Shown here piece by piece: positions 1,139 to 47,378 of a DNA stretch of 64,000 bases. Numbering within the stretch: the stretch's first letter is position 1; the number at the start of each line of letters is the position of its first letter. Origin of the DNA: Escherichia coli (GTDB lineage: Bacteria; Pseudomonadota; Gammaproteobacteria; Enterobacterales; Enterobacteriaceae). The translations under genes were made by a program, and so were the position numbers. The notes below the pieces were generated by a model. The model was not told where the DNA came from. It ran no database searches and saw nothing but the letters and a program-made list of their open reading frames with translations. The stretch is taken from NCBI RefSeq assembly GCF_003334355.1, contig NZ_QOWP01000010.1, one strand, 5' to 3'.

Positions 1139-3421
<2,283 letters not shown>

Positions 3422-3475: not shown

Positions 3476-4333
3476 TTAATGGTGGTCGTTTTCACGCAGG
3501 TAAATGACCCAGTATGTCAACCCAACCAACAAACCACCACCGATAATGTTGCCGATCGTAACCGGAATCAGGTTATCAGTGATGAAATTCATCACGGTCA
3601 GGTGAGAAAAATTTTCCGGTGCAGAACCGACTGCGGTCCAAAATTCCGGGGATGCGAAGTCGCGGATTACAATACCCATCGGGATCATAAACATGTTTGC
3701 GATACTGTGCTCAAAACCGCTGGCAACAAACATCGCGACCGGCAGCACCATAATGAACGCTTTGTCCATCAGGCTGCGGCCAGAATAACTCATCCATACT
3801 GCCAGACATACCATCAGGTTTGCCAGGATACCAAGACAGACGGCCTCAATAAAAGTATGGTGCACTTTGTGGTCGGCGGTTTGTAGGACGTTTAGTCCCC
3901 ATTGACCATTTGCGGTCATATACTCGCCGGAAAGCCACATTAAAAGTACAAACAGCAGTGCGCCGACCAGGTTGCCAAAATAGACATTTAGCCAGTTTTT
4001 CGCCAACTGACCCCAGGTGATGCGCCCACTCGCCTTAGCAACAACAATCAACACGGTGGAAGTAAAGAGATCGGCTCCGCAGACAACACAAAGAATCAGC
4101 CCCAGAGAGAAGCAAATGCCGCCAACCAGTTTTGCCATGCCGAAGGGCATTGTGCCTGTGCCAGTGGTTGCTGTGATATAGAAGACGAATGCGATTGAGA
4201 TGAAAACACCGGCGGTAATCGCCAGATAGAAAGTCTTAAGCGGATGTTTCGTTGCTTTATAGACACCCGCCTCTTCGGCCACTTTGGCCATTGCAGCAGG
4301 AAGTAAAAGATCAAAAGGGTTGTCAGCTTTCAC
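3476..4333 (-). CDS. focA: formate channel FocA (formate/nitrite transporter family)
   Basis: Track ORF is 343 aa; trimmed to the GTG at 4331-4333 (complement cac), which gives the known 285-aa protein starting (M)KADNPFDLLLPAAMAKVAEEAG. Confidence 0.9.
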   Translation of the reverse strand: MKADNPFDLLLPAAMAKVAEEAGVYKATKHPLKTFYLAITAGVFISIAFVFYITATTGTGTMPFGMAKLVGGICFSLGLILCVVCGADLFTSTVLIVVAKASGRITWGQLAKNWLNVYFGNLVGALLFVLLMWLSGEYMTANGQWGLNVLQTADHKVHHTFIEAVCLGILANLMVCLAVWMSYSGRSLMDKAFIMVLPVAMFVASGFEHSIANMFMIPMGIVIRDFASPEFWTAVGSAPENFSHLTVMNFITDNLIPVTIGNIIGGGLLVGLTYWVIYLRENDHH

Positions 4334-4393
4334 ACTAACTCTCTCTTTATTAAGTCGGCGACGAGATACTAACAAAGCATTATAGATGAGAAA

Positions 4394-4407
4394 TTGATAT
4401 AGATCAT
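4394..4407. promoter_or_regulatory. FNR-like binding site (TTGAT-N4-ATCAt)
   Basis: ttgatatagatcat at 4394-4407 matches the FNR consensus TTGAT-N4-ATCAA in 9 of 10 positions; lies about 60 bp upstream of the focA start. Confidence 0.45.
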
Positions 4408-4664
4408 ATCTCGCCTGGCTTATAGGCCCGTAACTCGCATGGTTTTTATGCAAATACGGAGTAAATATTTGATTATCCAAATAAAAATAAATTTTAAAAA
4501 TTAACAAATGAGTTGAATTTTTTCCGCATCCTCCGCTAAAACAGTTAATTAAAAGGGAGCATCAGGCGAATAAAGTAACAATATCGATCGTATTTATTAA
4601 ATACAAATTACCGATATTTAACCTTATAATTACAATTATTTTATTAATGCAAATATATGTAAAG

Positions 4665-4730
4665 CGGGGCATTAAAAAAACGCCCCGTAATATAACTCAG
4701 ACTAATCATTAAGCCTACATTGCGTAGGCT
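4665..4730 (-). terminator. hairpins immediately 3' of ycaO (putative terminator)
   Basis: Perfect hairpin agcctac/attgc/gtaggct (4712-4730) directly after the ycaO stop, then cggggc/gccccg stem (4665-4686) with a U7 run on the minus strand within its loop. Confidence 0.3.
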
Positions 4731-4738
4731 ATTTGATT

Positions 4739-6499
4739 TTATTTTGCCCAGAATGCTGCTTTGGCGCGCTGCAGCTTTTCGTAGGCCTTCAACAACGACT
4801 GATGTGCAGCAAACGCGTGCAGATCGCTATCTACCGGTTGCAGGCCGTAAAACGCCGCTTCGCCGCTCATTGCCGCACTGGCGGCTTCTACGGCATCTGC
4901 GCCGTACATGCGAACAAACGCATTCAGATATTGCAGCGGCTGGCGATCTTCTTCCTGTGCCAGTAATAACAACGTTTGCAGGCAGCGATAATAGTTGGCG
5001 CGTTCCGGACTAAATACTGATGAGTTAAACTCCATCGTCCATTCGGTCCAGACCAGAGCCTGTTCCAGATCGCCACCAGCCAGCGCCAGCATGGCTTTTA
5101 ATTCACCGATACGCAGGGTGTACCAACCGTTATCCGACCCGGTCGCCAGACCCAACAGCTCACGCACGCGGGTAAAGTCATCAAAACCTTCTTCATCCAG
5201 TTGCTCGATGAGGTTCAGGTAATCTTCTTTTTCCCACTCGCTGCCTGGTAGCGAAAGAATCGTTTCACGTAAATGGCTGCCCATACTGTTATTCGCGAGC
5301 CACAGATCTTCAGCCGGATAAATATCGGACATGCCAGGCACGATAATACGGCAAGCATAAACGCCCAGATGCTCGTAATCGGCAATATAAACTTCTTTAT
5401 CTTCTTTGTTGAAGATAGCCATCAGTGTGGCGAACTCTTCTTCCGTGGTGCCGGAGAAATTCCAGTCCACAAACGGATAATCGGCATCCTGCTTGAACAG
5501 GTCCCAGGAGATTAAACCGCTGGAATCGATAAAGTGCGTTTCGAGGTTGGTATGTTCAGCGACTTCTTCATCATCGAAGGTTGGCGGAGTAAACACATCC
5601 AAATCTTTCAGGCCACGACCTTGCAGCAGCTCGGTCACGGTACGTTCCAGTGCTACGCCAAAATCAGGATGCGCACCGAAAGAGGCAAAGCAGGTACCGT
5701 TAGCAGGATTGAACAGTACCACGCAAATCACCGGATACTGGCCGCCAAGCGAACCGTCATAAGCGAAGATTGGGAAACCCTCCGCTTCCAGCGTTTCGAT
5801 GGCTTCAACTACTGCTGGGTAACGCGCCAGCACGTCTGCCGGGATCTCTGGCAGGCTGATGCTTTCAGCAATAATGCGGTTTTTCACGTAGCGTTCGAAA
5901 ACTTCAGACAATCCCTGAACGCGTGCTTCGTTGCGGGTATTACCTGCGGACATACCGTTGGAGACGTACAGGTTACCAATGATATTCATCGGAATATAAA
6001 CGGTCTGATTGTCGGACTGACGCGTAAACGGCAGGCCGCAAATACCACGATCTTCGTTACCGGATTGTAGGTCAATCAGCATGCTGCCGGTCAGTTCATT
6101 CTCCGGATCATAAAACGCGCGCAGACGGTCATCGAGCAGCCCTTCTGGCACATCGTCATTTTCGGTCAGTGGGAACCATTTTTCGTTGGGATAATGCACG
6201 AACGGACCGTTGGCGATGGTTTCGCCCAGCCAGAAGTCCGCAAAAAAGTAGTTGGTTGAGAGACGCTCGAAATATTCACCGAGTGCAGAAGCCAGCGCCG
6301 CTTTCTTGGTTGCGCCTTTACCGTTGGTAAAACACAGTGCGCACTCTTTGTCGCGAATATGTACAGACCAGACGTTAGGCACGGGATTCAGCCAGGAGGC
6401 CTCTTCAATCTGAAAGCCGAGGTCTGAAAGTTTTTGCTGGAAGCGAGCGATGGAATCTTCCAGAGCGGCATCTTTGCCGGGGATAAATGTTTGCGTCAT
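4739..6499 (-). CDS. ycaO: YcaO protein (YcaO-domain ATP-dependent enzyme; S12 methylthiolation accessory factor)
   Basis: Track ORF is 597 aa; trimmed to the ATG at 6497-6499, giving MTQTFIPGKDAALEDSIARF (586 aa). Confidence 0.9.
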   Translation of the reverse strand: MTQTFIPGKDAALEDSIARFQQKLSDLGFQIEEASWLNPVPNVWSVHIRDKECALCFTNGKGATKKAALASALGEYFERLSTNYFFADFWLGETIANGPFVHYPNEKWFPLTENDDVPEGLLDDRLRAFYDPENELTGSMLIDLQSGNEDRGICGLPFTRQSDNQTVYIPMNIIGNLYVSNGMSAGNTRNEARVQGLSEVFERYVKNRIIAESISLPEIPADVLARYPAVVEAIETLEAEGFPIFAYDGSLGGQYPVICVVLFNPANGTCFASFGAHPDFGVALERTVTELLQGRGLKDLDVFTPPTFDDEEVAEHTNLETHFIDSSGLISWDLFKQDADYPFVDWNFSGTTEEEFATLMAIFNKEDKEVYIADYEHLGVYACRIIVPGMSDIYPAEDLWLANNSMGSHLRETILSLPGSEWEKEDYLNLIEQLDEEGFDDFTRVRELLGLATGSDNGWYTLRIGELKAMLALAGGDLEQALVWTEWTMEFNSSVFSPERANYYRCLQTLLLLAQEEDRQPLQYLNAFVRMYGADAVEAASAAMSGEAAFYGLQPVDSDLHAFAAHQSLLKAYEKLQRAKAAFWAK

Positions 6500-46810: not shown

Positions 46811-47378
46811 GGGCATTACCTCGCAGAGACAGAAGGTCAGGAACCTGAACATCGCGGCGGTGCAATGCCTGCCAGAAAGTTTCTAGCGCGGTATCAAGAC
46901 GGGTTTGCAGATTTGGCGTGAACTGGGGTCTGTGATGGTAATCAATTACTTGTGAGTCATCGGCAAACACGCCGTGCAGGATCTCCTGAGCTTTCAGTGC
47001 GCTTAAAACTGGTTTAAGGGCATAATCGACCGCCAGCAGATGGGCCACGGTACCGCCCGTCGCCAGCGGTAGCACCACTTTGCCTTGCAAAGCGCGTTCT
47101 GGCAGCAGGTCGAGCAGGGTTTTCAACGCACCGGAATAGGCGGCTTTATACACAGGCGTGGCGACAATCAGCCCATCGGCCTGTTGCAGCTGTTCGGTGA
47201 AGGTCTTGAGTGCCGGACTATCGAAACGAGCATAAAGTAGATCTTCCGGGGCGAAGTTTTGCAGATTCCAGTGATAAACCTCTACATCCAGGCCATTTAG
47301 TTTTTCCCGCGCATATTCCAGCAAGGAGCTGGAGCGAGAAGGAAAGCGAGGACTACCCGCCAGGGTGATGACACGCAT
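46803..47378 (-). CDS. ssuE: NAD(P)H-dependent FMN reductase
   Basis: 191-aa ORF; MRVITLAGSPRFPSRSS; overlaps the ssuA start by 8 nt. Confidence 0.93.
   Translation of the reverse strand: MRVITLAGSPRFPSRSSSLLEYAREKLNGLDVEVYHWNLQNFAPEDLLYARFDSPALKTFTEQLQQADGLIVATPVYKAAYSGALKTLLDLLPERALQGKVVLPLATGGTVAHLLAVDYALKPVLSALKAQEILHGVFADDSQVIDYHHRPQFTPNLQTRLDTALETFWQALHRRDVQVPDLLSLRGNAHA

Follow-up and report, generated by a model that had tools for sequence, protein, structure and literature searches.

The closest described system is the focA-pflB (pfl) regulatory region of Escherichia coli K-12 with its promoters P6 and P7, which was reportedly characterised by Sawers and Boeck (1989), Sawers and Suppmann (1992), Sirko et al. 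(1993) and Drapal and Sawers (1995); in vitro footprints and a requirement for IHF are said to have been published for this region as well, those for IHF by Sirko et al. (1993). The FNR 14-mer, the ArcA cluster and the genes, including their orientation, are those of the K-12 region, and the spacer analysed here is almost certainly the anaerobic control region already known for focA-pflB of E. coli. It controls the enterobacterial switch of pyruvate metabolism to formate when oxygen runs out, and metabolic engineers use its P6 promoter to drive expression under anaerobic conditions. The biology of the focA-pflB spacer is already known and nothing new follows from it; the value of the spacer is that of a positive control, where a sequence-only reading correctly identified an FNR site that is bound in experiments, together with the nature of its surroundings. 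That reading, referred to below as the earlier note, described a multi-promoter, AT-rich and A-tract-rich control region with a palindrome of the FNR type and IHF-type binding, and proposed matrix scans for FNR, ArcA, IHF and NarL sites.

The window, i.e., the whole stretch of DNA that was analysed, is 64,000 nucleotides (64 kb) long. The spacer and the genes that surround it are as follows:

Minus strand: pflA, as in the RefSeq annotation of matching E. coli genomes.
1139-3421, minus strand: pflB, as in the RefSeq annotation.
3476..4333, minus strand: focA coding sequence, 285 aa, with a GTG start at 4333..4331.
4334..4738, minus strand: ycaO-focA intergenic spacer, 405 bp, 30.9% GC, the focA-pflB regulatory region.
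4739..6499, minus strand: ycaO coding sequence, upstream of focA and in the same orientation.

The gene set and the order pflA, pflB, focA, ycaO are the same in RefSeq for the matching E. coli genomes, and the spacer occupies exactly 4334-4738, since the focA GTG lies at 4333..4331 and 4739 is the end of the ycaO stop codon. Its sequence matches positions 954467-954871 of E. coli K-12 MG1655 (NC_000913.3) with 100% identity. Of 5426 complete E. coli genomes, 5424 contain the spacer, with at least 99% identity in 5016 of the 5425 matching records. The boundaries and the gene identities agree with the earlier note, which had placed a 405-bp control region upstream of focA. Two of the complete E. 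coli genomes had no match to the spacer, one genome contained 20 matching places, and nine matches to PLSDB 'plasmid' entries were to megabase-sized or mislabelled chromosomal records. The spacer of E. coli TUM14668 contains an IS1 at ~4616, within the ArcA direct-repeat cluster, which cuts P6 off from the upstream part of the region.

A search based on FocA retrieved 80 loci from Enterobacteriaceae, and an alignment of 30 genera was used to calculate identity to E. coli. In all retrieved loci that extend far enough, ycaO is located upstream of focA, and in 75 enterobacterial species the spacer measures 382-407 bp, most often 404-406 bp. A long open reading frame at 3476-4507, which would extend focA across the FNR site, was rejected in view of the RefSeq GTG start and of indels of 1 and 2 nt in the upstream alignment; these indels indicate that the region ahead of the focA GTG is non-coding.

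The central element of the spacer is the FNR site:

4394..4407, reading ATGATCTATATCAA on the focA-sense strand: FNR binding site TTGATATAGATCAT, identified by matrix score, conservation and the ChIP-seq of Myers et al. (2013).

Published positions were transferred to the window in two steps: 777 was added to U00096.2 coordinates at the focA locus, giving NC_000913.3 coordinates, from which 954467 was subtracted and to which 4334 was added; the published focA site and the FNR-like site at 15697 both fall exactly on the sequences found. In Table S6 of Myers et al. (2013; PMC3688515), the identical 14-mer TTGATATAGATCAT has the coordinate U00096.2 953750 (window 4394) and carries the flag '+', which marks a site beneath an FNR ChIP-seq peak; for the FNR ChIP-seq and ChIP-chip peak, the same study gives a centre of U00096.2 953741/953746 (window 4385-4390). 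Table 1 of that study places the site at -40.5 and records FNR-dependent activation with raised anaerobic sigma70 occupancy; focA-pflB is classed as 'Activated' in both Table 1 and Table S8, and the aerobic expression in Table S12 is lower, approximately 7-fold for focA and 5-fold for pflB. The palindrome at 4394-4407 is the published, in vivo bound FNR site of the focA-pflB promoter, and the inverted repeat, its position, the in vivo occupancy and the FNR-dependent anaerobic expression are those of a class II FNR promoter. The earlier note had named a lack of FNR occupancy at 4394-4407 as the observation that would refute its reading; the occupancy is documented by the ChIP-seq of Myers et al. 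(2013), a published FNR peak covers these positions, and the refutation therefore fails.

The promoter elements between the FNR site and focA are the following:

4379..4384, minus strand: -10 hexamer TATAAT of an overlapping promoter, with the start at 4370 (Kim et al., 2012).
4366..4371, minus strand: -10 hexamer TAGTAT of the FNR-dependent promoter P6, read from the sequence and invariant in 30 genera.
4334..4360, minus strand: focA 5'UTR from P6, 27 nt.
4339-4347, minus strand: Shine-Dalgarno-like AAGAGAGAG ahead of the focA GTG.

The P6 start was placed at 4360 because Myers et al. (2013) give a distance of -40.5 from the centre of the site, and TAGTAT lies 6 nt upstream of this literature-derived start. 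Kim et al. (2012) reported an aerobic focA transcription start at U00096.2 953726 (window 4370) with a 37-nt 5'UTR and an upstream sequence that ends in ...CTATAATGCTTTGTTA; this is the only start within the spacer in their aerobic list, and focA is not mentioned in Federowicz (2014). Start 4370 is situated 10 nt upstream of the P6 start, and relative to it the centre of the FNR site falls at -30.5, over the promoter spacer and the -35 region. We take the promoter with this start to be 'P6A', an overlapping promoter that Kaiser and Sawers (1997) are said to have found in use when FNR or its site is missing. This position and the promoter so described would both suit an FNR site that is mainly an operator, repressing the overlapping TATAAT promoter rather than activating, but such a role as the main one is very improbable: overall, FNR activates focA-pflB, sigma70 occupancy becomes approximately 7-fold higher under anaerobic conditions, and -40.5 from the second start is the classical activating position. 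Repression of the overlapping promoter is a complement to the activating role rather than a true rival of it, since both roles probably coexist.

The activating FNR site is accompanied by an anaerobic sigma70 ChIP-seq peak at U00096.2 953697 (window 4341), where the signal increases from 285 with oxygen to 2026 without it (Myers et al., 2013; PMC3688515). The 53 bp from TATAAT to the focA GTG (4334-4386) are 97% identical across the 30 genera, as against 51% for the fourfold-degenerate sites of focA and 83% for focA coding DNA overall; this level of conservation suggests that the region may be under constraints beyond those of a promoter, e.g., from translation or RNA processing. Further downstream, starts of pflB and a sigma70 peak were located within the focA coding sequence, at 3516, 3677 and 3775: Kim et al. 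(2012) list one pflB start at U00096.2 953131 and another with a 256-nt 5'UTR, both inside focA, and a sigma70 peak at U00096.2 952872 falls inside the focA coding sequence as well. These starts and this peak fit the internal pfl promoters of the literature.

In sequence terms, TTGAT-ATAG-ATCAT at 4394-4407 is a 9/10 match to TTGAT-N4-ATCAA, with a single mismatch, and both the coordinates and the mismatch count coincide with those given in the earlier note. A bare consensus match of this kind is not above chance, because three sites with no more than one mismatch occur in the 64 kb, compared with 2.83 expected, and AT-rich spacers are full of TTGAT-like words. An FNR matrix was built from 62 ChIP-bound sites listed in Myers et al. 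(2013), with the focA site left out. It assigned 16.68 bits to 4394-4407, the best score in the window (runner-up 12.33) and above the median of the training sites (15.3); a shuffled window is expected to yield approximately 0.08 sites with a score this high, and 16.68 bits was reached in 9 of 5000 shuffled versions of the spacer. The proposed FNR scan thus puts the palindrome at the top of the 64-kb window. Its half-sites are invariant across 30 enterobacterial genera; of the four bases between them, two vary. A chance origin of the palindrome, as an FNR-like match in AT-rich DNA that plays no regulatory role, retains practically no probability against this score and this pattern of conservation, and it is already refuted by the published ChIP-seq occupancy, alongside which stands the FNR-dependent expression.

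Table 1 of Myers et al. (2013; PMC3688515) counts two FNR sites at focA-pflB. The FNR matrix revealed no second canonical site in the spacer, where the next best score is 3.6 bits; GTAATATAACTCAG at 4687-4700, which has this score, was rejected as a second FNR site, and so was TTGATTATCCAAAT at 4469-4482 (-1.6 bits), which is the IHF core instead. Two other FNR-like 14-mers of the window, at 15697-15710 near ycaI and at 46932-46945 within ssuE, are predicted sites that have no ChIP-seq peak in Myers et al. (2013; PMC3688515), and both serve as internal negative controls for FNR binding.

The alignment of the 30 genera delimits conserved blocks along the whole spacer, with the following identities to E. 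coli:

Fourfold-degenerate sites of focA: 0.51.
Spacer stretches between the blocks: 0.35-0.46.
4334-4386, P6/P6A region, 5'UTR and ribosome binding site: 0.97.
FNR site: 0.96.
Block 4408-4428: 0.89-0.95.
AT tract beside the IHF core (17 bp at 4482-4498): 0.97.
ATAATCAA of the IHF core: 0.88.
TTTTAATTAAC: 0.92.
TGTTACTT: 0.89.
TATATTACGGGGC: 0.93.

The functional blocks are 0.83-0.97 identical over the 30 genera. As to base composition, the GC content of the spacer is 30.9%, compared with 50.7% for the window, which places it in the lowest 0.3% of 405-bp windows; runs of at least four A or T number nine, and shuffles that keep the composition have 7.6 +/- 2.4. The spacer is AT-rich and has no more A-tracts than its composition gives, so that, of the description in the earlier note as AT-rich and A-tract-rich, the former part holds and the latter does not. 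That the spacer might be chiefly H-NS-bound, silenced or horizontally acquired DNA, with a low GC content of no specific regulatory meaning, fits this GC content and Table S3 of Myers et al. (2013; PMC3688515), where two H-NS regions from anaerobic ChIP-chip, U00096.2 953171-953853 and 953975-954657, extend into the spacer, but it has a negligible probability given that synteny, spacer length and discrete sequence blocks are kept across Enterobacteriaceae, that the operon is highly expressed anaerobically and that Table S6 of the same study records no overlap with nucleoid proteins at the FNR site.

Upstream of the FNR site, the spacer contains a candidate site for IHF:

4462..4474, minus strand: IHF core AATCAAATATTTA, a perfect match to WATCAANNNNTTR, ~108 bp upstream of P6.
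4482..4500, minus strand: near-invariant AT tract TTTTTAAAATTTATTTTTA, on the 5' side of the IHF core.

This core is the only perfect match in the spacer; nine such matches occur in the window, compared with 2.65 expected. In the 30 genera, TCAA and TTA of the core are conserved and its four N positions vary, a pattern that one would expect for IHF binding. The AT tract at 4482-4500 probably forms the AT-rich arm of this site, and a perfect core with an AT-rich segment on its 5' side is what defines an IHF site at the level of sequence. A passage of Park et al. (2013; PMC3798270) cites an in vitro IHF footprint by Sirko et al. (1993), and Table S4 of Myers et al. (2013; PMC3688515) contains no IHF ChIP-chip peak at U00096.2 953600-954099 in anaerobic glucose medium. 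The IHF-type binding put forward in the earlier note is supported by the perfect, conserved core at 4462-4474, with the lack of an IHF ChIP-chip peak at the locus as a caveat.

Elements of the ArcA type lie further upstream and are listed below:

4593..4646, minus strand: ArcA-P direct-repeat cluster TTGTAATTATA AGGTTAAATAT CGGTAATTTGT ..., with 11-bp phasing (Park et al., 2013).
4572..4581, minus strand: further ArcA-type repeat TTGTTACTTT, scoring 9.7 bits with a single-repeat matrix and having an identity of 0.83-0.89.
4544..4554, plus strand: conserved element, TTTTAATTAAC in the focA sense and GTTAATTAAAA on the plus strand.

Park et al. (2013; PMC3798270) reported an ArcA ChIP peak, 'focA2', at U00096.2 953962-953967 and predicted a four-repeat ArcA site at U00096.2 953949-954002, which corresponds to window 4593-4646. 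A two-repeat ArcA matrix, derived from 66 other sites of Table S4 in Park et al. (2013), gave 18.59 bits at 4615-4635 on the minus strand, the best score in 64 kb; the pair with this score is TTGTAATTATAAGGTTAAATA, composed of TGTTAA-like repeats with a centre-to-centre spacing of 11 bp. The top match of the ArcA scan proposed in the earlier note is therefore inside the published cluster. In the alignment of the 30 genera, GTAAT, GTTAA and GTAA are kept at 11-bp phasing, and a third phased repeat, GGTAA, is conserved across genera. The phased repeats, together with in vivo occupancy (the peak of Park et al., 2013, overlaps the predicted site), are those of an ArcA-P operator. With the single-repeat matrix, another repeat was detected at 4498-4507, and the plus strand scored 6.05 bits at 4542-4551. 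On the opposite strand, the conserved TTTTAATTAAC (4544-4554) becomes AGTTAATTAA; judging by its sequence, it is a probable ArcA box in inverted orientation, and we take it to fit the older ArcA consensus WGTTAATTAW. As for function, Park et al. (2013; PMC3798270) found no ArcA-dependent change in focA-pflB expression in the conditions used and called the activation mechanism unknown; focA-pflB is described there as bound and as differentially expressed in just one of the two data sets (FNR and ArcA), and a passage of the same paper cites earlier work that reports activation.

Two further conserved blocks of the spacer are:

4408..4428, minus strand: GGCCTATAAGCCAGGCGAGAT, adjoining the FNR site on its upstream side.
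4440-4446: AAAACCA, with an identity of 0.89-0.95 in the 30 genera.

Neither GGCCTATAAGCCAGGCGAGAT nor AAAACCA matched any of the factor consensus patterns that were tested, and the strict CRP half-site, the PdhR half-site and the Fis patterns had no matches in the spacer. Nitrate repression of focA-pflB has been reported in the literature; the NarL scan proposed in the earlier note found no strict heptamer TACYYMT on either strand of the spacer and one relaxed match only.

The part of the spacer adjoining ycaO contains the following elements:

4712..4730, minus strand: first hairpin of the ycaO 3'UTR, GCCUAC-GCAAU-GUAGGC, obtained by folding, of which only the 3' arm GTAGG is conserved.
4689..4694, minus strand: -10-like TATATT within CTATATTAC (4687-4695), kept in 26 of 30 genera.
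4665..4687, minus strand: hairpin of the ycaO intrinsic terminator, CGGGGCGUU-loop-AAUGCCCCG, with a T-rich tail.

The hairpin at 4665-4687 was assigned as the ycaO terminator because it combines a GC-rich, covarying stem with a run of T in most genera: the consensus stem has seven pairs, three of which show compensatory changes, the covariation extends over 19 genera, and most genera have a run of 6-8 T, while the tail in E. coli is only CTTTACATATATTT. A search against Rfam revealed no structured RNA in the spacer other than a sub-threshold match to DapZ at 4657-4733 on the minus strand (25.3 bits against a gathering score of 56 bits, E 0.1), which was rejected; the resemblance to DapZ is probably that of the two ycaO 3'UTR hairpins only.

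Directly 5' of the terminator stem, abutting its 5' arm, lies CTATATTAC. A second anaerobic sigma70 ChIP-seq peak, at U00096.2 954040 (window 4684), rises from 329 aerobically to 1955 anaerobically (Myers et al., 2013; PMC3688515); it is situated ~340 bp upstream of the peak at 4341, coincides with CTATATTAC and is most simply explained as the upstream promoter P7 of the literature. With the sigma70 peaks at 4341 and 4684 and the aerobic start at 4370, the multi-promoter region proposed in the earlier note is supported. TATATT was considered a candidate -10 element, since the terminator does not need CTATATTAC to be conserved and the sigma70 peak coincides with it. It is possible, albeit somewhat doubtful, that TATATT at 4689-4694 is the -10 element of an upstream anaerobic promoter and that the blocks at 4408-4428 and 4440-4446 bind a further factor. 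If so, the start of the upstream promoter would be at ~4682, inside the 5' arm of the terminator; transcripts of ycaO would stop at the hairpin, the new transcripts, having no 5' arm, would run into focA, and one stretch of DNA would be both a terminator and a terminator-proof promoter. The only match to the sigma70 consensus in a simple scan, TTTACA-17-AATAAT (4663..4635), was not preferred as the upstream promoter, as it is unconserved outside E. coli.

The sequence features, their conservation, the occupancy by FNR, ArcA and sigma70 and the FNR-dependent expression come from the present analysis or from published genome-scale data, and they are best explained by the mechanism already established for this region. 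When oxygen is lacking, dimeric [4Fe-4S] FNR binds the palindrome at 4394-4407, centred approximately 40.5-41.5 bp upstream of the P6 start (4360), which is the class II position; FNR bound there overlaps the -35 region and recruits RNA polymerase to the TAGTAT -10 element. The same FNR dimer, lying at -30.5 of the TATAAT promoter with its aerobic start at 4370, would be expected to occlude that promoter. ArcA-P occupies the phased repeats at 4593-4646, 210-290 bp upstream, with the extra boxes at 4572-4581 and 4544-4554, and IHF, bound at 4462-4474 and the AT arm between the ArcA cluster and FNR/P6, presumably bends the DNA and lets the upstream complex reach the promoters. A higher-order complex of ArcA-P and IHF, with DNA looped by IHF as we infer, would then boost anaerobic transcription. 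A second anaerobically induced sigma70 site lies at ~4684, beside the ycaO terminator, where a further anaerobic promoter would sit at the far end of the spacer.

Among other E. coli promoters, that of yfiD (grcA) has in common with focA a class II FNR site at -40.5 and ArcA sites upstream (Table 1 of Myers et al., 2013; Table S4 of Park et al., 2013), as well as the control of a glycyl-radical or pyruvate formate-lyase function. It differs in having two strong FNR sites (PatSer 17.25 and 13.87), whereas the focA spacer has one canonical site and, unlike yfiD, a predicted IHF site and several promoters. At the nirB and narG promoters, IHF is the upstream architectural partner. Both of these promoters share with focA an FNR site at ~-41.5 and a site for an architectural protein upstream, but they depend on NarL/NarP heptamers, whereas the focA spacer has no strict TACYYMT and its upstream partner is ArcA. 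Between the spacer and the focA-pflB region of K-12 there is no difference; the two are the same locus, base for base.
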